From assembly GCA_963765495.1 (NCBI GenBank), contig CAVXWP010000005.1:96001-160000 (forward strand): a stretch of 64,000 nt of DNA, given 5' to 3'. This DNA comes from Blastocatellia bacterium (GTDB lineage: Bacteria; Acidobacteriota; Blastocatellia; UBA7656). The notes below the pieces were generated by a model. That model was not told the origin of the DNA. It did not search any database and was given only the letters and a program-made list of their open reading frames with translations. Positions 2,905 through 17,025 of the stretch are shown here, in pieces (within the stretch, counting starts at the first letter, position 1; each line of letters begins with the position of its first letter). Both the position numbers and the translations under genes were made by a program.

Positions 2905-3885
2905 ATGCCTCAGATCAACACTGTGAAGGGGGCCGTCGACACGGCCCGGTTGGGCGCGACTCTGATGCACGAACACGTATTCGTGCTCTCGACTGAAATC
3001 ATGCAGAACTTCCCCGAAGGCTGGGGCGATGAAGACAGCCGCGTGAGCGACGCGATTGCGCGGCTCAACGAATTGAAGTCGCGGGGCGTGGATTCAATCG
3101 TAGACCTGACGGTAATCGGACTTGGCCGCTACATCCCTCGCATCGAGCGCATTGCCCGCGAGACTTCTATCAACATCATTGTGGCCACGGGCGTTTATAC
3201 CTACAACGACGTGCCGATGTACTTTCACTTTCAGGGGCCGGGCACCGAGCTTGGCGGGCCTGAGCTTATGACCGACATGTTTGTCAAAGACATCGAAGAA
3301 GGCATAGCCGGAACGAATGTGAAGGCCGCGATCTTGAAATGCGCCACCGATCAGCCGGGCGTAACTCCCGGTGTAGAGCGCGTACTCCGCGCCGTTGCTC
3401 AGGCGCATCGGCGGACGGGCGTGCCTATAACCACGCACACTCACGCGCCTACGATGCGCGGGCTCGAACAGCAAAGGATTTTTGAAGAAGAGGGCGTAGA
3501 CCTTTCCCGCGTCATCATCGGTCATTCGGGCGACACTACGGATCTGGATTATCTTGAGAAACTGATCGCTCGCGGTTCTTACATCGGCATGGACCGTTTC
3601 GGCATAGACGTATTGCTGCCGTTTGAAGATCGCGTGAACACGGTCGCCCGTCTGTGTGAGCGCGGTCACGCAGACCGGATGGTCCTTTCGCAGGACGCGG
3701 CCTGCTTTAACGACTGGCTGCCGGAGGCGGCGCTGCCCGAGGTGCTTCCAAACTGGCATTATCTTCATATTCACAATGATGTGATACCCGCTTTAAAAGA
3801 GCGCGGTGTAACCGACGAGCAGATTCACACCATGCTCGTCGAAAATCCTCGAAAGATATTCGAGCGGCAAGGAGCTTACCTGTGA
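2905..3885 (+). CDS. Phosphotriesterase-like lactonase (PTE/PLL family)
   Basis: TLMHEHVF, LKCATD (carbamylated Lys), THTH, IGHSGD, MDRFG, LSQD; SD gagga before ATG 2905. Confidence 0.9.
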   Translation: MPQINTVKGAVDTARLGATLMHEHVFVLSTEIMQNFPEGWGDEDSRVSDAIARLNELKSRGVDSIVDLTVIGLGRYIPRIERIARETSINIIVATGVYTYNDVPMYFHFQGPGTELGGPELMTDMFVKDIEEGIAGTNVKAAILKCATDQPGVTPGVERVLRAVAQAHRRTGVPITTHTHAPTMRGLEQQRIFEEEGVDLSRVIIGHSGDTTDLDYLEKLIARGSYIGMDRFGIDVLLPFEDRVNTVARLCERGHADRMVLSQDAACFNDWLPEAALPEVLPNWHYLHIHNDVIPALKERGVTDEQIHTMLVENPRKIFERQGAYL

Positions 3886-5384
3886 TTCGTCCTTTTGATC
3901 AGAGCGGAATAACTCGCGACTCAAACCAGATAGCCCATTACGATAACCGCCCGGCTTCGCTAGTCGAGATGCTGCGGGCGAGAGTCGATGAAACGCCCGA
4001 CGCGGAAGCGGTTGTTGAGGTGGGCGGCGGACGCCTCACCTACCGCGAGTTGTGGGAGCAATCGGCAAACGTGGCCGGAGGGCTGAAAAGCAAAGGCATA
4101 AATCGCGGCGACCGCGTGAGCATCCGCCTCGGAAACGGGCTTGACTGGTGTCTGGCCTTTTTCGGAGCGCAGATGGCCGGAGCCATCGCCGTACCCGTAA
4201 ACACCCGATTCAGCGAATCTGAGGTCGAATATGTGGTCACGGATTCCGGCTCGTCTTATGTCTTTATGCCGGGTGCGGAGCTTCCCCGAGACAAGGCTTT
4301 TGTCATCGAAGACCTCGCGTCCGAGGATGTTTCGGCGATCTTTTACACAAGCGGCACGACCGGGTTTCCAAAAGGCGCGATGACCACGCACGAAAATTTT
4401 CTGTCGAATATCGAGACCTGCCGCCGCGTGGTAGACCTGCCGACAGACGGCAGCGTGCGAAATCTGGTTTCGGTCCCGCTCTTTCACGTCACCGGCTGCA
4501 ACAGCCAGTTGTTGCCTACGTGCGAAGCGGGCGGAACCACCGTGATAATGCCCGCCTTCGATGTGCAGGCTTTCCTTGCCGTCATCGCGCAGGAAAGAAT
4601 CAATCTGGTCACATCGGTCCCGGCGGTTTTCTGGCTTGCGATCAATCAGCCAAACTTCCGCGAACTCGATACGTCGGGCGTTCTATGGACTACCTATGGC
4701 GGCGCACCCATCGCCCCTGAACTCGTGCGGCGCATCAAGGAATCTTTCCCAAATGCCCGCGTAGGCAACGGCTTTGGACTTACCGAGACATCATCGGTTT
4801 CTACATTTCTGCCGCACGAATATGCCGACGAGCGGCCCGAAACCGTAGGGTTCGCCGCGCCGGTCGTGGACCTTGAAATCTTCGAACCGGACCCGGAAAC
4901 CGGGGTGGGCGAACTGCTTGTCAGAGGGTCGAACGTCGTAAAGGGTTACTGGAACAAACCGGAGGCGACCGCGCAGGCTTTCGTAAACGGATGGCTGCAC
5001 ACGGGCGATATGGCCCGCATCGACGAAGACGGATTTGTGCAGATCGTTGACCGCAAGAAAGACATGATCTGCCGGGGCGGCGAAAACGTTTACTGCGTCG
5101 AGGTGGAAAATGTACTGGCCGCTCACCCGTCCGTCTTCGAAGTGGCCGTAATCGGCGTGCCCGATGAAGTGATGGGCGAAAAGGTAGGCGCGGTCATCGT
5201 CCCGCGTCCGGGCAAGGAGGCCGACCCGTCCGACATCCTCGCGTTTGCGGGCAAGCACCTGGCGGATTTCAAAGTTCCTCAATATCTGACCTTGCGCGCC
5301 GAGCCTCTGCCCCGCAATCCCGGTGGAAAGATATTGAAGCCAAAACTTAGAAACTCTGTCGAGTGGGGCCGCCCCGCTCGTTGA
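3882..5384 (+). CDS. Long-chain acyl-CoA synthetase (FadD-like AMP-binding enzyme)
   Basis: YTSGTTGFPKG, GFGLTET, WLHTGD, DRKKD, PRNPGGKILK; GTGA overlap with the PLL stop. Confidence 0.92.
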   Translation: MIRPFDQSGITRDSNQIAHYDNRPASLVEMLRARVDETPDAEAVVEVGGGRLTYRELWEQSANVAGGLKSKGINRGDRVSIRLGNGLDWCLAFFGAQMAGAIAVPVNTRFSESEVEYVVTDSGSSYVFMPGAELPRDKAFVIEDLASEDVSAIFYTSGTTGFPKGAMTTHENFLSNIETCRRVVDLPTDGSVRNLVSVPLFHVTGCNSQLLPTCEAGGTTVIMPAFDVQAFLAVIAQERINLVTSVPAVFWLAINQPNFRELDTSGVLWTTYGGAPIAPELVRRIKESFPNARVGNGFGLTETSSVSTFLPHEYADERPETVGFAAPVVDLEIFEPDPETGVGELLVRGSNVVKGYWNKPEATAQAFVNGWLHTGDMARIDEDGFVQIVDRKKDMICRGGENVYCVEVENVLAAHPSVFEVAVIGVPDEVMGEKVGAVIVPRPGKEADPSDILAFAGKHLADFKVPQYLTLRAEPLPRNPGGKILKPKLRNSVEWGRPAR

Positions 5385-5439
5385 CGTGCAGTTGACAGGC
5401 CGTTAAACCTTGAGCGTCTGAAAAGCAAAGGCGACTGCC

Positions 5440-5760
5440 TTACAGGTGCTCGATGTCTTCAAGCGACATCTCGTATTCGCCCGCCATCGACGGGTGGCCG
5501 TGTTTTTGCGCGGCCTCGATTCCACGGCGATAAGCCTCGCGCGCTTCTTCGACCTTTCCAAGTTTCAGATTCGCCTGCGCGAGCAATCTGTAAGCCGCCC
5601 CTTCGTCATCGTGCAGCGAAAGGTATTCAAGAAATGCCGCTCGCGCTTCTTCGTAGTCTTCGGTCTTCATCAGTTCGTTTGCGAGGCCGTACCGGGCAAG
5701 CGCATTTGTAGGGTCTGAGGCAACCATTTCGCGAAACGCTTCGAGTCTGGATGATGCCAT
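5440..5760 (-). CDS. Small tetratricopeptide-repeat protein
   Basis: ARYGLANEL and AYRLLAQ..LGK.EEAREAYRRG TPR-like pattern; SD aggaga. Confidence 0.8.
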   Translation of the reverse strand: MASSRLEAFREMVASDPTNALARYGLANELMKTEDYEEARAAFLEYLSLHDDEGAAYRLLAQANLKLGKVEEAREAYRRGIEAAQKHGHPSMAGEYEMSLEDIEHL

Positions 5761-5897
5761 ACGATTTTCTCCTTTATGAACGGTTCAGTTTTTGCTCAAC
5801 CTCTCGAACTATAGAGTCAGGCAATTTGACCACGCAAGGTCAACAATGAGAGCATGAGTTTTACGTGGAGCAGAGTGAGTGTGTGAAGGAGTTTGAT

Positions 5898-6119
5898 GTG
5901 AGCATTGATCCAGAAAAGGTACGGACACAGGAAGACGAAGACGAACCGGCAGCGATTGACAGGGTTGAGGAACGAGTCGAGGCCGATTTGAAACGCCTGG
6001 AAGGCAAGGCGAAGATCAGCGTAGGCCAGGGAATGGATGACGAGAAACTGGAGAGCGAAGGCCGCAAGCTCAAAAAGGAAGGCGAAAAAGAGCTCGAAGA
6101 ACAGCAGCATAAAGAGTGA
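5898..6119 (+). CDS. Small acidic CsbD-like stress protein
   Basis: GKAKISVGQGMDDEKLESEG resembles the CsbD GKAKE..G..T.D..L..EG pattern; AAGGAG 6 nt before GTG 5898. Confidence 0.55.
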   Translation: MSIDPEKVRTQEDEDEPAAIDRVEERVEADLKRLEGKAKISVGQGMDDEKLESEGRKLKKEGEKELEEQQHKE

Positions 6120-6125
6120 CGCGTA

Positions 6126-6201
6126 GACAGGATTAAGAGGATTCGAAAGGATTAAGAGAGAATCTTGTTGAATCCAATCTAATCCTGTTAATCCTGTCAA
6201 A
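6126..6201. repeat. Periodic palindrome, (A)CAGGATT family (9-10 nt period)
   Basis: gacaggattaagaggattcgaaaggatt ... aatcctgttaatcctgtcaaa; the last 21 nt are identical to 48959-48979. Confidence 0.85.
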
Positions 6202-6228
6202 GAATCCGGCGCTATTGAAAGAGGAGCT

Positions 6229-8034
6229 ATGGAAAGAATACTGGCAGTGACGTTTCTGTTGACCATGTGTGTACTGGCTACGGCGCAGATCACATCGCGC
6301 AAATCATCTCAAAGCAAATTGCCTCCCGGTTACTGGCCGCCTGAAAAGAGCCAGCCCCTTGTTGACAAGACTCAAACTGTAAGGCTGTCGCCCGATCTTG
6401 CCACGCTAAGCGCGGGCGAACGCGAGGCGGTAAACAAACTTCTTGAAGTCGGCAAGATATTTCAGAACCTGTTTGAACAGCAACGTCACGCACAGGCGCT
6501 TTCGTCCGAGCAGAAACTTGAGCAACTGGATAAACAGATGGGTTCGACTGCTGCGACCGCAAATCTGCTGATGCTCTATCGTTTGAACCAGGGGCCGATT
6601 GCCACTACGCTCGATAACAAGCGGGAGCCGTTTCTGCCGGTTGATCCTGCGCAGCCGGGGAAGAATGTCTATCCGTGGGGCGTCACAAAACAGGAGATAG
6701 AAACCTTCCTCGCGGCGCATCCTGAAAAGCGCGACTATATTCTCGACTTGCGCACGGTCGTCCGTCGCGCAACACCTGAGAACTTGCAGCGCGATCTTTC
6801 CGTGCTCAGACAGCATCCGGTTCTCGATACCCTGCACCCCGGCTTGAAACAGGAATTGAAAGTGATGCGAACCGAAAAGGGATTCTATGCGGTTCCCTAC
6901 TCGGTCGCCTATGCCGAAGAGCTACTGCGCGCTCACGAATTGTTGAACGAAGCAGCCGATGCTCTTCAAAAAGACGACGACGAGTTTGCGCGCTTTCTCA
7001 GAAACCGCGCCCGCGATCTGCTGTCGGATGATTATGAGTCGGGCGATGCCGCGTGGGTCACGGGCCATTTCAATAACCTGAACGCGCAGATCGGCTCTTA
7101 CGAGGTTTATGACGATGAGCTTTATGGAGTAAAGACGTTTTTCGCTTTCAGTCTTTTGAAGGTGCGACAGCCTGAAACGACAGACCTGCGAAAGGCGATG
7201 AGCGGTTTGCAGATGATCGAAGACTCGCTCCCCTATGACCATCACAAGAGGATAAGAGAAGACATCCCCGTCGGCGTCTATGACGTGATAGCCGATTTCG
7301 GACAGGCGCGGGGCGGAAACACCGCTACCATCCTGCCGAATGAGAGCTATCTGGCTCGCCGGTATGGACGCACAATCCTGTTGAGGTCGAACATTATGCG
7401 CAACCCCGATCTTTTCGAGGGCACGTTGCATATCTGGCAGGCGGCGGTCGCTCCCGAGCATAAAAACGAATTGACGCCCGACGGGAATTTTTACCGCACG
7501 CTCTGGCACGAAGTCGGCCATTACCTCGGCGTAGACAAGACAAAAACAGGCAAGGATCTGGATACGGCATTGGAAGAGAATTCAAGCGCGCTTGAAGAGA
7601 TGAAAGCCGATCTGGTCTCTTTGTTTGCCGCCGAAGCCTTGCATAAGCAGGGCTATTACAACGACGAGCAGTTTCGCTCAATTTACGCGGGCGGCATCCT
7701 TCGAGTGTTGCAGAATAACCGGCCGCGCCGCGATCAGCCTTACAACACCATGCAGTTGATGCAGTGGAATTACTTTTTAGAGAACGGGTTGTTGAGCTTT
7801 GACGCGCAAACGGGCCGTCTCAAAATCCATTACGACAAGTATCACGACGTAGTCGGCAAGTTGCTGGCTAAGGTTCTTGAGATTCAATATCAGGGAGACA
7901 AAGCGGCATCAGACAGGTTTATCGACCAGTACACCAGCTGGGACGAGAACCTCCACGGAGTAGTGGCGAAAAATATTCGCGAGCAGCAAAAATACCGCTT
8001 CCGCCTGTTTAAGTACGCTGCCCTGAATGAATAA
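6229..8034 (+). CDS. Secreted M49-family (dipeptidyl peptidase III-like) zinc peptidase
   Basis: Signal peptide; GSYEVYDDEL, ATILPN, WHEVGH and EEMKAD zinc motifs. Confidence 0.82.
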   Translation: MERILAVTFLLTMCVLATAQITSRKSSQSKLPPGYWPPEKSQPLVDKTQTVRLSPDLATLSAGEREAVNKLLEVGKIFQNLFEQQRHAQALSSEQKLEQLDKQMGSTAATANLLMLYRLNQGPIATTLDNKREPFLPVDPAQPGKNVYPWGVTKQEIETFLAAHPEKRDYILDLRTVVRRATPENLQRDLSVLRQHPVLDTLHPGLKQELKVMRTEKGFYAVPYSVAYAEELLRAHELLNEAADALQKDDDEFARFLRNRARDLLSDDYESGDAAWVTGHFNNLNAQIGSYEVYDDELYGVKTFFAFSLLKVRQPETTDLRKAMSGLQMIEDSLPYDHHKRIREDIPVGVYDVIADFGQARGGNTATILPNESYLARRYGRTILLRSNIMRNPDLFEGTLHIWQAAVAPEHKNELTPDGNFYRTLWHEVGHYLGVDKTKTGKDLDTALEENSSALEEMKADLVSLFAAEALHKQGYYNDEQFRSIYAGGILRVLQNNRPRRDQPYNTMQLMQWNYFLENGLLSFDAQTGRLKIHYDKYHDVVGKLLAKVLEIQYQGDKAASDRFIDQYTSWDENLHGVVAKNIREQQKYRFRLFKYAALNE

Positions 8035-12500: not shown

Positions 12501-13466
12501 TTACATCTTGGCAATATGAGTGGCGATGTACCAGACGTTGCCAAAGGGGTCTTTGACACCCGCGATGCGGTCTCCGTAGGGCTGGTCAGCAGGCTCGCTG
12601 AGCGATTCAGCGCCCTCCGCAACTGCCTGCCGGTACCGGTTGTCTACATCATTCACATAGAGGTAAACCGTTGACGGCATAGGCTGGAACGGGCCGTGCG
12701 CCTCGCTCAAAGCAAGGATCGAGTCCCCGATCCTCATCTTCGAGTGCAGGATCACGCCATCAGGTGATTCGGCGCGGTAGGCTTCCGTCGCTCCGAAGGC
12801 GCGCTTAAGGAAATCTATCGCCCGGTCTGCCCCGTGGAAATTCAACGAAAACGCTATGGTGCGAAGATCGGGAGGATTGTGCTCAAGCGGCCTGCGGGTG
12901 GAAATATACCACCTGTTGCCAAACGGGTCTTCCACCCCGGCATCGCGATCACCATACTCTTCTTCGACCGGCTCGTGCATTGACGTGGCTCCGGCCCCGA
13001 GCGCGCTTTTGTATGTGGCATCAACATCGTCTACGTAGACGAGAAGCGCAGCCGGGCTCGGTGTGCCTTCCCACACGCCCCCGCCCCCGATCATCACTTT
13101 TGATTCGCCAATCTGCACTTCCGCATGGAGGCCCCCGGCCGAGCCGGTCGCGCGAAACAGTTCTTCGGCACCAAATGCCTGTCTGACGAATTCAATCAAC
13201 TCTTCCGCTTCACGAACGATCAAATAAGGCGTAATCGTGTGAAAACCTTCGGGTACGGATTTTTCTGCTGCTGCCATAAATGCTCTCCTTTCCAATTCAT
13301 CTTTTAATCGCGCCCTGTATGCCTCGCGCGGCATACACCTAAGTTCGACCGCGATGCGAACCAGCGGCTCGACGCCGGAACTCGCCCGTGGCAGGGGCGA
13401 ATCCGCATTTGCGATGATCGCCTCTACGATGTTGTCGAGTTGTTCGTCTGGTCTCTGTTTAGCCAT
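12501..13466 (-). CDS. Tandem VOC/glyoxalase (PhnB-like) protein with an approximately 60-aa N-terminal anti-sigma-like extension
   Basis: Two repeats: ITPYL...YGDRDAGVEDPFGNRWYIST and YGDRIAGVKDPFGNVWYIAT; start overlaps the sigma stop. Confidence 0.85.
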   Translation of the reverse strand: MAKQRPDEQLDNIVEAIIANADSPLPRASSGVEPLVRIAVELRCMPREAYRARLKDELERRAFMAAAEKSVPEGFHTITPYLIVREAEELIEFVRQAFGAEELFRATGSAGGLHAEVQIGESKVMIGGGGVWEGTPSPAALLVYVDDVDATYKSALGAGATSMHEPVEEEYGDRDAGVEDPFGNRWYISTRRPLEHNPPDLRTIAFSLNFHGADRAIDFLKRAFGATEAYRAESPDGVILHSKMRIGDSILALSEAHGPFQPMPSTVYLYVNDVDNRYRQAVAEGAESLSEPADQPYGDRIAGVKDPFGNVWYIATHIAKM

Positions 13467-14022
13467 CAGACTCATCCATCATCGCCCGTAAATTTTTCAG
13501 GGCACGAAACTGAAGCTGCTTGACGGCTCCTTCACTGCGCCCGAGTTGCTGCGCGATTTGACGAATGCTTTTCTCTTCGCCAAATCGCATATTGATGACG
13601 AGGCACTGGTTAGGAGGAAGCGAGGCAACAAGGCGAAAAAGCCGCGCGTGGCGTTCGAGCTCTTCAAAATCGGTCTGCACACGCTCTTCAACGCGGTCCT
13701 CAAGTGGAACATCACGCTCGCCGCCCTTTGACCGATCCGCGATCAGATTTGCGGCGATCCTAAAGAGCCACACCGCAAAGGGCACACCCCGCCATTCAAA
13801 ACGCGGCAAATTTGCGAGCGCCCTTTGAAACACCTCCGATGTAAGGTCTTCCGTCTCGTCGCGGTCGCGAACACGGCGAACGATAAACGCATAGACGCGC
13901 TCAAAATTATCTTCGTAAAGCTCGGCAAATCGGGCGGGGTCCTTTTGCGCAGCCTCGATCATAAGGCGTTCTTTCGCCTCATCGGTTGGGAACCCGGTGG
14001 TTGCATGTTTGCCGACGCCCAT
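13459..14022 (-). CDS. ECF RNA polymerase sigma factor (BldN-like)
   Basis: Region 2 EDLTSEVF...FAVWLFRIAAN; region 4 IAQQLGRSEGAVKQLQFRAL. Confidence 0.92.
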   Translation of the reverse strand: MGVGKHATTGFPTDEAKERLMIEAAQKDPARFAELYEDNFERVYAFIVRRVRDRDETEDLTSEVFQRALANLPRFEWRGVPFAVWLFRIAANLIADRSKGGERDVPLEDRVEERVQTDFEELERHARLFRLVASLPPNQCLVINMRFGEEKSIRQIAQQLGRSEGAVKQLQFRALKNLRAMMDESDG

Positions 14023-14040
14023 CTTTTCTCTCTATCTGTA

Positions 14041-14068
14041 TAAACTCTCCGGCGACAAAAAGGTTACG
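14041..14068 (-). promoter_or_regulatory. Putative autoregulatory ECF promoter, CGTAAC-N16-AGTTTA
   Basis: Minus strand cgtaacctttttgtcgccggagagttta just upstream of the sigma ATG; resembles the sigma-BldN consensus CGTAAC-N16-CGTTGA as I recall it. Confidence 0.6.
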
Positions 14069-14131
14069 GCCGAGGCGCATTTTCTAATTCACTTGGTACA
14101 GTCAAAGCCCGGGGTGTTATAGTTTAGGCCA

Positions 14132-14533
14132 ATGAGCGAACCGTCCCCAAAGACGAAACGATCCCAGGCACGCAGATTGATTCTTTTCTGCGCGCTTGCA
14201 GGTATCCTTTTGTCGAGCAGCACCGGAGGCTGGTTTGTGCCCGTTCACGCCGGGCAGTCCACGCCAGACCGCGCGATTTTGCTTGCCGGGTTGTCTGCAA
14301 TTGATTCCGCCATGGGTAGGCCCGGGAATCAATTTCAATACTCCGGGAATAAGACCTCGCGCTATCAGGGACATTTCGCCCCGCCCGATACTACTTCCGA
14401 ATTTATACCGGGTCGCATTCATACCCAACCGTTACCTTTTTCCCACAGCAAGACGGCTCCTTCTTTAGTATCCATCTCACCGCCAAGTGATCGCGCCCCA
14501 CCGTCTCAGCTTCTATGGCCGGATACATTTTAA
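14132..14533 (+). CDS. Putative ribosome-arrest leader protein (signal peptide plus C-terminal RAPP)
   Basis: Basic N-terminus, hydrophobic LILFCALAGILL, VHA cleavage-like site, P/S-rich body, RAPP at aa 121-124 (14492-14503). Confidence 0.65.
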   Translation: MSEPSPKTKRSQARRLILFCALAGILLSSSTGGWFVPVHAGQSTPDRAILLAGLSAIDSAMGRPGNQFQYSGNKTSRYQGHFAPPDTTSEFIPGRIHTQPLPFSHSKTAPSLVSISPPSDRAPPSQLLWPDTF

Positions 14534-14633
14534 GCTGGCCGGAGGGCTTTATTTTCAAGCCTCGGCTATCGGTGTAACCCGGGCGAAGGTCTATCTTCTC
14601 CCATATCTGCTACAGAAGTTCGGAGGAAAATTT

Positions 14634-14789
14634 ATGGAGTCACACACAATCATCGGGTTGGTGGCGCTCGCACTCGTTATCGGATTTATTATCCTGATCA
14701 GGCGGCATTCCAAGCCGGAGGCGGGCGATAATCAAACCGTTCAGGCGGTCGACAAGCCCGATGTAAAAGCGCGAATGAGAAAGCCGTAA
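14634..14789 (+). CDS. 51-aa single-pass membrane microprotein
   Basis: SD GGAGGA at 14622-14627; MESHTIIGLVALALVIGFIILIRRH... (one TM followed by basic residues). Confidence 0.7.
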   Translation: MESHTIIGLVALALVIGFIILIRRHSKPEAGDNQTVQAVDKPDVKARMRKP

Positions 14790-14811
14790 AGCAAATCTCT
14801 ATTCTCAAATT

Positions 14812-14836
14812 CAGGGGAGTCAAATAGGCTCCCCTG
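14812..14836 (+). promoter_or_regulatory. 10-bp intercistronic hairpin
   Basis: caggggagtc-aaata-ggctcccctg, with no poly-T tail. Confidence 0.5.
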
Positions 14837-14871
14837 CATCCCCGGTTTCCCCAGCCCAGGAAAGGAATAAC

Positions 14872-15030
14872 ATGAACCCGATCTGGACACAGATGAGCTA
14901 CAAGGCAATCAAAGAAATTATGAAAATGTGCAGGCATTGCAAGAAGGCATCCCTCTATCGGCAAAAGCATTTTGGCCAGTTCTACAAATGCAAACATTGT
15001 GGACACAGGTTCAAAGAGAAAGGAGATTAA
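14872..15030 (+). CDS. 52-aa zinc-ribbon microprotein (not in ORF track)
   Basis: MNPIWTQMSYKAIKEIMKMCRHCKKASLYRQKHFGQFYKCKHCGHRFKEKGD*; SD AAGGA; the stop is 3 nt before the antiporter ATG. Confidence 0.7.
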   Translation: MNPIWTQMSYKAIKEIMKMCRHCKKASLYRQKHFGQFYKCKHCGHRFKEKGD

Positions 15031-15033
15031 ATC

Positions 15034-17025
15034 ATGCCTCACGATCTACACCTGCTACAGGAACTACTCATATTGCTTGTCGCGTCCGTGCCCATGGCCT
15101 TTATCTGCGCGCGGCTTCGACTTCCCACGATTGTAGGGTTTATGCTGACGGGCGTCTTGATAGGCCCCTATGGTCTGCGTCTGATCACAGATGTTCCGGC
15201 CATCGAAGCTCTGGCGGAAATAGGTGTCGTGCTGCTGTTGTTCACAATCGGGCTGGAATTTTCGCTGCGCCGAATACTACAGATGAAAAGGCTCGTCTTT
15301 CTGGGCGGAGGGTTACAGGTAGCCGTCACCACTCTGGCTGTAATAGGGCTCGCCTACGCGGTCAACCGCCCCGTCAATCAGGCGATCTTTTTCGGATTTC
15401 TTTTCGCGCTTTCCAGCACGGCCATCGTTTTAAAAAGCTATGTGGACCGCGCCGAAACCGATGCCCCGCACGCGAGGGCTGGCATAGGCATACTCCTGTT
15501 TCAAGACCTGTGCGTGGTCTTGATGATGATGATGGTTCCGGTGCTCGGCGGCAAAGAAGGATCATCCCCGGTCGCCGTGGCGACTACGCTTGTCACAGCC
15601 TTTGTGGCGATTGCCGTCATCCTCCTCACCGCGCGAAAGATCGTCCCCTTCGTGCTTCATCATGTAGTTCGCATGCGCAGTTCGGAGGTCTTTGTTATTT
15701 TCGTAGTAGTCGTAAGCCTGGGCACCTCCTGGGTAACATCGCAGTTCGGGTTATCGCTTGCGCTCGGGGCCTTTATCGCGGGGCTTGTGCTTTCCGAATC
15801 CGAATACAGCCATCAGATCGTAGCCGATGTGCTGCCGTTTCGCGATGTCTTTAACAGCGTCTTTTTTGTCTCTATCGGGATGCTGTTGTCGGTGAGTTTT
15901 CTGCTGTCCAACATAGTGACGGTGCTGGCGCTGGTGAGCGCCCTGATCGTTATCAAGGCCCTGATAATACTCCTCATCCTGCGGCCTCTGGGCAATTCAT
16001 TACGCATATCGACTATGGCCGCCGTGGGGCTTGCGCAAATCGGCGAGTTCTCCTTTATTCTGGCGAAGGCCGGTGTAATCGAGGGTCTGCTTTCAGACAG
16101 CGATTATCAGATTTTTCTCGCAGCCGCGATTATTTCGATGCTCTCGACCCCGTTTCTGATAAAGGCCGCGCCCCGCATCGGCTACAGCTTGCAGGCGATG
16201 TTGTCTCCCGATTCGCTGCTTGAACCAAGCATGATCGGCTATGACCCAAGAAAGAACGAGCTAAAAGGACATGTGGTCATTATCGGATACGGGCTGAACG
16301 GGCGAAACGTCTCGACCGTGCTTCGCCGCAATAACATCGCTTATGTCGTGCTGGATTTGAACGCAGACACGGTTCGAAAAATGGCAGCCGAAGGCGAACC
16401 GATGTTGTATGGAGATTCGACGCGAAAGGAAGTATTGCATCGCTTGAACCTGGAATGTGCCCGCGTGCTGGTTGTCGCCATATCAGACCCGATAGCGACC
16501 CGCCACACGGTGGCGCAGGCCCGCGAGATAAATTCTCACCTGCACATAATCGTGCGTACCCGTTACATGTCGGAATTATCCGATCTCTACAAGCTTGGAG
16601 CGAATCAGGTAATCCCCGAAGAGTTTGAAACCAGCATCGAGATTTTTTCTCGCGTGCTGGAAGAATACGGGCTGGCGCGCAACACCATACACAGGGAAGT
16701 CGAGCAGGTCAGACGCGAGGGCTATCAAATACTGCGAGCGCCTGCTGCGCCCCTGCTTGAGGTCGGGACCGTGGCCGATGCGCTCGGAGTCGCGTCTACC
16801 GACACTCTTTTTATTGAATCGAATTCACCGGCAGTGGGAAAAACCATAGGCGAGTTGAATCTGAGAAAAGAGACGGGCGCGACCGTGATAACGGCGATTC
16901 GAAGCGGGAAAACAGAAATCAACCCCGGGCCTGATTACAAATTCGAGCCGGATGACATCATAGTGCTGCTCGGCAACCCCGAATCCATCGAGAAAGCCCT
17001 TGAGCGTTTGAGCGCTTCCATCTGA
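15034..17025 (+). CDS. CPA2/Kef-type cation:proton antiporter with TrkA-N and TrkA-C (RCK) domains
   Basis: LLFTIGLEFS, LSSTAIV, LLFQD, QIGEFSF, IIGYGLNG, VIPEEFE; C-terminal GKTIGELNLR..GATVITAIR RCK_C. Confidence 0.93.
   Translation: MPHDLHLLQELLILLVASVPMAFICARLRLPTIVGFMLTGVLIGPYGLRLITDVPAIEALAEIGVVLLLFTIGLEFSLRRILQMKRLVFLGGGLQVAVTTLAVIGLAYAVNRPVNQAIFFGFLFALSSTAIVLKSYVDRAETDAPHARAGIGILLFQDLCVVLMMMMVPVLGGKEGSSPVAVATTLVTAFVAIAVILLTARKIVPFVLHHVVRMRSSEVFVIFVVVVSLGTSWVTSQFGLSLALGAFIAGLVLSESEYSHQIVADVLPFRDVFNSVFFVSIGMLLSVSFLLSNIVTVLALVSALIVIKALIILLILRPLGNSLRISTMAAVGLAQIGEFSFILAKAGVIEGLLSDSDYQIFLAAAIISMLSTPFLIKAAPRIGYSLQAMLSPDSLLEPSMIGYDPRKNELKGHVVIIGYGLNGRNVSTVLRRNNIAYVVLDLNADTVRKMAAEGEPMLYGDSTRKEVLHRLNLECARVLVVAISDPIATRHTVAQAREINSHLHIIVRTRYMSELSDLYKLGANQVIPEEFETSIEIFSRVLEEYGLARNTIHREVEQVRREGYQILRAPAAPLLEVGTVADALGVASTDTLFIESNSPAVGKTIGELNLRKETGATVITAIRSGKTEINPGPDYKFEPDDIIVLLGNPESIEKALERLSASI

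Follow-up and report, generated by a model that had tools for sequence, protein, structure and literature searches.

A candidate family of RAPP-type arrest-peptide leaders associated with predicted cation/proton antiporter operons in Blastocatellia

Arrest peptides are best understood as monitors of protein export and, more recently, of copper. RAPP and RGPP are described as versatile, intrinsic and robust arrest cores that are refractory to EF-P (Fujiwara et al. EMBO J 2025, PMC12992588), and the same study reports that RAPP-like motifs are depleted from proteomes, are over-represented close to the C-terminal ends of small proteins that are secreted or membrane-bound, and occur in small open reading frames (ORFs) upstream of genes of diverse function. 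All seven of the seven Streptomyces lividans C-terminal RAPP/RGPP proteins reported there, together with CruR, stall in a motif-dependent manner. Within the ribosome, RAP occupying the P site keeps a peptide bond from forming with an A-site proline, and the five residues preceding RAPP matter, ending in aspartate in ApdA (Morici et al. 2024, PMC10951233). Here we describe a 133-residue ORF with an RAPP motif near its C-terminus, located upstream of a cation/proton antiporter gene in a 64,000-nucleotide stretch of an acidobacterial contig (Blastocatellia bacterium, GenBank assembly GCA_963765495.1, contig CAVXWP010000005.1, positions 96,001 to 160,000; hereafter the window). We propose that this ORF is probably a cis-acting leader and belongs to a new, unannotated family of RAPP-type arrest peptides acting on a cation/proton-antiporter operon.

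The two features expected of RAPP-type arrest peptides, a C-terminal core and an N-terminal signal or transmembrane (TM) segment, are both present in this ORF. Like the leaders surveyed by Fujiwara et al. (2025), it is shorter than 300 aa, has a localisation signal and RAPP near its C-terminus, and is followed by a co-directional gene. It differs in that antiporter-linked leaders are neither tested nor discussed in the available portions of that study, in that their pipeline takes the next annotated gene whereas the next gene here is an unannotated microprotein, and in that a TM microprotein, a zinc-ribbon protein and an intercistronic hairpin accompany the present family. ApdA and ApdP, which are encoded before secDF (Sakiyama 2021, PMC7897499; PMC10951233), share the RAPP core near the C-terminus and the N-terminal export signal, and ApdA also has an aspartate directly before the motif (LALGD-RAPP); there is however no detectable homology outside the motif, and stalling of the protein described here is a prediction. 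CruR, a DUF2946 protein (PF11162; Roy 2022, PMC9426467; arrest reported in PMC12992588), is likewise an exported RAPP leader before an ion-homeostasis transport gene, but the present leader has no DUF2946 match and no CxxC motif or histidine cluster in the alignment of its family (A1, described below), and its putative target is an inner-membrane antiporter. The proposed logic, in which a stall is released by pulling and its prolongation induces the downstream gene, is that of SecM-secA, MifM-yidC2 and VemP-secDF2, although the arrest sequences are unrelated, SecM's RAGP excepted. In contrast to the Sec- and YidC-monitoring substrates (SecM, MifM, VemP, ApdA, ApdP and ApcA), the downstream genes do not encode protein-localisation machinery.

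The RAPP-leader class itself is already known, and antiporters are visible as a target class in a published table. The source table for Fig. 4B of PMC12992588, which covers 30 downstream classes (the RAPP ORF census spans 52,895 genomes), gives 75 RAPP versus 81 AAPP upstream ORFs for 'cation:proton antiporter' (3.6-fold, adjusted p 1.7e-12) and 266 RAPP versus 94 AAPP for 'CBS domain-containing protein'. The list of upstream ORFs from the same study holds RAPP leaders before potassium/proton antiporter and Kef-family K+ transporter genes, and the word 'antiporter' occurs zero times in its main text as available. The suggestion in the original prediction that a coupling of this kind had not been described was therefore too strong. 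In the literature that we searched there is no account of the leader family, its microgene partners, the hairpin or the physiological logic: no member of the family was found in the searched part of the PMC12992588 list, which is not proof of absence, and the literature search found no description of an arrest peptide controlling an antiporter.

The architecture of the locus is as the original prediction had it, with a signal, a linker and RAPP nine residues before the stop in the 133-aa ORF, followed by a co-directional 51-aa membrane protein, a 52-aa zinc ribbon and a CPA2 antiporter with RCK domains (Table 1). RAPP occupies residues 121-124 of the leader, with the Pro123 and Pro124 codons at 14498-14500 and 14501-14503 respectively, and by analogy with ApdA, ApdP and CruR we predict that the ribosome stalls with Pro123 in the P site and Pro124 in the A site. 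The N-terminus contains five K/R residues and residues 16-45 are uncharged. AlphaFold2, run with alignment A1, gives a confident helix at residues 7-32 (pLDDT, the predicted local distance difference test, about 90) and a weak, low-confidence helix at 47-61; the protein is otherwise predicted to be disordered, with a mean pLDDT of 60. The N-terminal part matches a signal peptide or N-in anchor and the remainder an unfolded linker in these models, with the signal judged from charge, hydropathy and the AlphaFold2 helix. The predicted disorder is as expected of a leader peptide and not of a folded protein, and the leader has no Pfam family at E <= 0.1 and no NCBIfam family.

Table 1. Features of the leader-antiporter locus and other RAPP ORFs of the same genome. 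Positions are those of the window unless a locus is named.
Feature	Coordinates	Strand	Remarks
Leader ORF, 133 aa	14132-14533	+	Basic N-terminus, hydrophobic signal/anchor, disordered linker, C-terminal SPPSDRAPP plus 9 residues
Leader codons 7-32, basic n-region and hydrophobic helix (putative Sec signal peptide or N-in signal anchor)	14150-14227	+	AlphaFold2 helix, charge, hydropathy
Leader codons S116-P124 (SPPSDRAPP)	14477-14503	+	Sole strongly conserved block; alignment A1
Untranslated spacer, 100 nt, leader stop to microprotein start	14534-14633	+	GGAGGA Shine-Dalgarno at 14620-14625
TM microprotein, 51 aa; family consensus MSSEIIVVLVL..GFI.WVR plus polar tail	14634-14789	+	No Pfam/NCBIfam family
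Intercistronic stem-loop, 10-bp stem, 5-nt loop, no U tract	14812-14836	+	Between microprotein stop and zinc-ribbon Shine-Dalgarno; z -2.66
Zinc-ribbon microprotein, 52 aa; NPIWTQM...CxxC...CxxCGHxFKEKG	14872-15030	+	Zn_ribbon_IS1595 E 1e-4, below Pfam cut-off
CPA2 cation/proton antiporter, 663 aa, C-terminal RCK, Kef/YbaL-like	15034-17025	+	Pfam
RAPP ORF	L118:367-801	+	
RAPP ORF	L122:369-746	+	
RAPP ORF	L123:363-785	+	
RAPP ORF	L126:4472-4909	-	
RAPP ORF	L127:4501-4878	-	
ORF of 124 aa, hydrophobic N-terminus, ends in SPRSADRAPPYSI	G000:C1:580002-580376 = L125:4503-4877	-	Directly upstream of H+-translocating pyrophosphatase gene (H_PPase, E 9e-266)

When 61 related genomes were searched at the protein level, 13, counting the window's own, gave homologues of the leader at E <= 1e-3, and the reading frames of these homologues all end in [I/L]SPPxDRAPP plus 1-13 residues. 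In alignment A1 (14 leader sequences, 24-37% identity to the window's protein) R77, R121, P123 and P124 are invariant, and S55, D58, R63, S116, P118 and A122 nearly so; a second conserved block spans residues ~52-80, with the consensus LSLxDSAxxRxEKRxxxxESKxxRRQ. Of 401 Blastocatellia genomes searched with the profile, 28 gave matches, with 22 of 52 genomes matched in the window's own taxonomic family, four of 220 in a second and one of 87 in a third. Among 14 newly fetched loci, 12 have an ORF ending in RAPP (one of these, from the unpublished genome G296, is excluded from all counts) and the two weakest matches, L059 and L061, do not. Members of the family are present in 25 Blastocatellia genomes, mostly of one taxonomic family. 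Searching the profile against 1.84 billion representative proteins yielded just 48 matches at E <= 1e-3, of which 40 have RAPP at their C-termini, one each has RGPP, RDPP and RASP, and the remaining five are partial matches that lack the motif and look truncated.

The family appears to be constrained most strongly at RAPP. The original prediction had made its interpretation depend on conservation of the motif in homologues, and this is what we find: RAPP is present in 24 of the 25 genomes, with RDPP in the other (L032), and 42 of the 48 representatives keep R[A/G/D]PP, 1-8 residues before the end and exactly four in 26 of these 42. The distance from RAPP to the stop is likewise four residues in 12 of 20 loci (range 1-13), and this fixed spacing recurs although the residues after RAPP vary and are not conserved among the representatives. 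Across 11 aligned loci the alanine codon and both proline codons of the motif use all four third-position bases, and the arginine codon is CGC or CGT; because the codons vary synonymously, RAPP is under selection as a peptide and not as RNA. The sequence comparisons indicate that conservation of RAPP exceeds chance and that the leader ORF is a genuine gene, belonging to a small family without annotation.

The antiporter has the Na_H_Exchanger (E 4e-59), TrkA_N (1e-23) and TrkA_C (1e-16) domains that characterise CPA2 antiporters of the Kef/YbaL type; the NCBIfam models KefC, KefB and YbaL also match, with scores short of their equivalog cut-offs, and no orthologue name can therefore be assigned. 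The genes from the leader to the antiporter are on the same strand with gaps of 100, 82 and 3 nt, the last separating the zinc-ribbon stop from the antiporter ATG; their order is conserved, and a strong hairpin occupies the second gap. Scanning 13 and a further eight larger loci against Pfam (21 loci from 21 genomes and 12 genera, whose kinship means that the counts are not independent) shows that in 19 of the 21 the leader is followed, no more than about 4 kb downstream, by a co-directional CPA2 exchanger. The link to CPA2 antiporters that had been proposed from the window is thus recovered with three gene architectures and in unrelated upstream contexts. Eight loci (L021, L022, L023, L024, L027, L029, L062 and L069) have a TrkA_C protein of ~166 aa and an exchanger of ~407 aa, eight (the window, L025, L026, L028, where the gene is split, L031, L032, L033 and L065) have a fused exchanger-TrkA_N-TrkA_C protein of 663-707 aa, and three (L064, L066 and L068) have an exchanger-TrkA_C protein of 500-518 aa. 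A CNNM/CorC gene is inserted in L024, L025 and L027. The genes upstream of the leader vary, with an extracytoplasmic function (ECF) sigma factor in the window, response regulators in L021-L023, and others elsewhere.

Both microproteins recur with the leader. The TM microprotein directly follows it in 12 of the 21 loci, with a spacer of 91-119 nt in 11 of these and 234 nt in L023. The zinc ribbon is present in 17 of the 21 leader loci and is absent upstream of all 48 antiporter orthologues taken from other genomes, so it travels with the leader module and not with the antiporter. Its family comprises 26 clusters with no known function, and Pfam, NCBIfam, homology and Atlas searches gave generic zinc-ribbon leads only.

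Interpretation of the ORF as an arrest leader is favoured because RAPP is the most conserved feature of the family, with R121, P123 and P124 invariant and the codons of the motif varying synonymously. It is supported by the nature of the substitution in one representative, which yields RGPP, the other strong arrest core, by the placement of the motif always 1-13 residues before the stop, and by the N-terminus, which in all 21 loci is basic and then has at least 15 uncharged hydrophobic residues (from charge and hydropathy), the remainder being mostly disordered. The co-directional CPA2 gene downstream in 19 of 21 loci and 12 genera, behind differing upstream genes, points the same way, as do the stalling of the tested C-terminal RAPP/RGPP proteins and the enrichment of the 'cation:proton antiporter' class downstream of RAPP ORFs (both PMC12992588). 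Stalling of the leader and its release by pulling are what we infer from the published RAPP peptides, and the sensing step (export- or proton motive force-dependent pulling) and the output step are proposals. When the ribosome reaches RAPP about 120 residues would have been made, and the N-terminal signal and the charged segment at ~52-80 would be outside the ribosome and able to engage the Sec translocon. Pulling on the chain by export would release the stall, whereas slow export, for example at low proton motive force (PMF), would lengthen it, and a longer stall would raise expression of the TM microprotein, the zinc-ribbon protein and the CPA2 K+(Na+)/H+ antiporter. Candidate routes from the stall to the downstream genes are unmasking of a Shine-Dalgarno (SD) sequence, protection from Rho, and the intercistronic hairpin. 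PMF-dependent release is supported by the report that PMF pulls charged nascent chains strongly enough to release SecM arrest (review PMC6028853, citing Ismail et al. 2015).

If this interpretation is correct, an RAPP leader on cation/proton antiporters would extend arrest control to pH, K+ and PMF homeostasis, and would offer a naturally occurring case where the force pulling on a growing peptide might serve as a readout of membrane energisation. It would also assign a likely role to three unannotated microgenes of many soil Acidobacteriota, and put a defined family, open to experimental test, behind what was a single row in a published enrichment table. A more specific form of the proposal, to which we give a low probability, is that the leader is a co-translational gauge of membrane energisation. 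At the stall the charged segment would trail the P site by some 45-70 residues and be located within or close to SecYEG, and its electrophoretic or PMF-driven movement would provide the releasing pull, so that the length of the stall would report membrane potential or PMF. The stall would then set the K+/H+ antiporter operon, which interconverts the electrical and pH components of PMF, with the TM microprotein, the zinc-ribbon protein and the hairpin acting as a relay from the stall to the antiporter. Were this so, the similar but unrelated RAPP leaders before Kef/YbaL-type genes in the available part of the PMC12992588 list (Actinomycetota and proteobacterial records) would represent a convergent and widespread solution.

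Several observations weigh against the arrest-leader interpretation, and a number of them concern the step from stall to output. In the SecM, MifM and VemP systems a stem masking the SD is melted by the stalled ribosome. A similar helix looked plausible in minimum free energy (MFE) folds: in that of 14470-14660 (z -0.41) a segment immediately 3' of RAPP (14502-14525) is paired with the region of the microprotein SD (14603-14626), and comparable long-range MFE pairings occur in about half of 20 loci; unlike the stems of those systems, however, it is unsupported by three controls. In duplex energy with the SD the arrest zone is the best or near-best complement, relative to all other sequence windows, in 6-7 of the 20 loci. 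When the 5' zones are exchanged between loci or shuffled, the mean number of expected pairs between arrest zone and SD is 4.8 (p 0.08) or 4.7 (p 0.09) respectively, compared with 5.8 for the native sequences (Wilcoxon). Masking the footprint of a stalled ribosome moves the probability that the SD is unpaired from 0.37 to 0.43 (p 0.17), with 0.39 for a control mask 45 nt upstream, and in the window alone the mask lowers it from 0.46 to 0.38. Most of the pairing reflects the complementarity that any CCN-CCN proline codons have to a purine-rich SD. RNAalifold gives no consensus structure for the MAFFT alignment of the leader-microprotein spacer, nor for that of the microprotein/zinc-ribbon spacer, both alignments being poor, so that this is not evidence of absence. 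A Rho loading site in the spacer was also considered and rejected, there being no C-rich, G-poor signature and a C/G ratio of about 1. A simple consensus scan of 13900-15200 finds no sigma-70-like promoter, the leader's own included, using a consensus that is not validated for Acidobacteriota, and two weak terminator-like sites against 1.7 expected.

A GC-rich hairpin is present between the microprotein and zinc-ribbon genes in 10 of 11 loci (the window, L021, L022, L023, L030, L031, L064, L065, L066 and L068), with a perfect stem of 8-13 bp in nine of them and a weak one of 5 bp in L064 (z +0.70). The z-score is <= -2.3 in six of these 10 spacers, the stem sequences vary between loci, and no U tract follows. 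The hairpin may serve in attenuation, stabilisation or coupling; it could also uncouple the antiporter from the leader, which is a further point on the negative side. We also note a small GC hairpin (4-5 bp, for example GCGC-loop-GCGC) 10-25 nt upstream of the microprotein SD, seen by eye in about eight of 11 loci with stems that vary between them; in the window (14590-14612 region, alignment A2 columns ~131-150) it is weak, a 3-bp CUG/CAG stem.

Other contrary points lie outside the RNA. The window's leader is atypical of its family, with a tail of nine residues rather than four and a diverged middle motif in A1. Two loci, L030 (YitT) and L063 (an M50 peptidase), have a gene other than an antiporter after the small genes. 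RAPP arrest is species-specific, and most of the S. lividans peptides do not stall in the E. coli system (PMC12992588). In addition, we searched upstream of homologous antiporters for signal-bearing RAPP ORFs, as the original prediction had proposed. Of 39 antiporter-orthologue loci in other genomes with at least 700 nt of upstream sequence, 35 have no RAPP-type ORF there, and a leader is not general or obligatory for CPA2 antiporters of this type. The remaining four (L074, L090, L097 and L098) have a signal-bearing ORF ending in GRAPP or SRAPP 98-446 nt before the antiporter, and such an ORF is also present in L087, for which 661 nt of upstream sequence is available. These ORFs together with L069:1243-1629(+) form a second leader subfamily with the N-terminus ...LCFSVGEGLRLxPFP... 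and a C-terminal G/SRAPP, and they precede CPA2-RCK genes or a Usp-TrkA_C-exchanger cluster, and neither the zinc ribbon nor the MSSEII microprotein accompanies them.

The conserved middle block of the leader raises the question of whether something other than export is sensed. The exported block at ~52-80 could recognise a ligand in the periplasm, or an ionic condition, and this, not export capacity or PMF, would release or set the arrest, with binding or folding outside the membrane generating the pull, as proposed for copper and CruR. Ligand-driven release is discussed for CruR and for leaders with metal sites in PMC12992588, and the block has near-invariant or invariant S55, D58, R63 and R77 residues and a weakly predicted helix (47-61); genes for CNNM/CorC Mg2+ transporters are in the same putative operon in three loci. 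We nonetheless regard this as unlikely, since the block contains no cysteine or histidine metal site and is poorly kept in the window's leader, and specific K+ or Na+ binding by a short disordered peptide is improbable. An alternative in which the ion is sensed on the cytoplasmic side, with the stall reading K+ or Mg2+ through the efficiency of RAP/P peptide-bond formation and the signal merely bringing the mRNA to the membrane, would make the leader an intracellular cation gauge for cation-efflux genes. The downstream genes all encode exporters or exchangers of cations (CPA2 in 19 of 21 loci, CNNM/CorC in three) and fit such a gauge, and the proline codons of the Salmonella mgtL leader offer an analogy for cation-dependent peptide-bond formation. 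It would leave the signal unneeded, yet this is conserved in 21 of 21 loci, and the published RAPP arrests are intrinsic, robust and EF-P-refractory (PMC12992588); we found no report of ion dependence of RAPP arrest in the available published RAPP work, and consider an explanation of this type highly unlikely.

The ORF might alternatively encode a functional small exported or membrane protein, such as an accessory subunit of the antiporter, with RAPP serving the mature protein and any pause being incidental. Conservation of the middle block and the N-terminus as well as RAPP would be accounted for in this way, the two further conserved microproteins of the putative operon suggest a multi-subunit assembly, and no RNA switch was detected by RNAalifold, the pairing controls or the ribosome-mask test. 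The mature part is however mostly predicted to be disordered and otherwise variable (24-37% identity), and there is no conservation in the residues that follow RAPP. Ordinary proteins show selection against RAPP, while all tested C-terminal cases stall (PMC12992588), and the single A-to-G change gives RGPP, which is consistent with arrest. A role as a small protein in its own right thus seems quite improbable, and we prefer the interpretation as an arrest leader.

RAPP leaders also occur elsewhere in the genome from which the window derives. In a six-frame survey of 29,482 ORFs of at least 60 aa, AAPP is commoner than RAPP overall (130 versus 111), whereas among ORFs of 300 aa or fewer with the motif in the last 19 residues there are 26 with RAPP and 14 with AAPP. 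Seven of these 26 have a hydrophobic N-terminus: the antiporter leader, five before TonB-dependent-receptor-like genes, and one before an H+-pyrophosphatase gene (Table 1). The five are signal-bearing, 125-145 aa long and end in RAPP, and each is upstream of a TonB-dependent-receptor-like or OMP_b-brl_4 gene; the one in L127 matches DUF2946 (E 2e-5). They represent the CruR-like class known from the literature, which this genome has in several copies. The organism therefore seems to use the RAPP leader device, a further point in favour of the arrest-leader interpretation. The H+-pyrophosphatase-linked ORF has no homologue in 40 related genomes and may be a chance occurrence or very young. Paralogy between it and the antiporter leader was rejected, since the two resemble each other at the C-terminus only (BLASTP E 0.035; hhalign probability 11%).

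Two features of neighbouring genes may be noted. In L028, from a 72%-complete genome (G022), the gene for the CPA2-RCK protein and the adjacent one for an acyl-CoA dehydrogenase are each broken into a pair of ORFs (6136-6996(-) and 4919-6085(-); 3973-4932(-) and 3704-3976(-)), which may reflect frameshifts or assembly errors. In the window, the ECF sigma factor gene (13459-14022, - strand) is divergent from the leader and overlaps by 17 nt a gene with two glyoxalase/VOC domains (12501-13475, - strand) whose 324-aa product has an N-terminal extension of ~80 residues. The two may form a sigma/anti-sigma-like pair, and this pair is divergent from the leader in the window's genome only.

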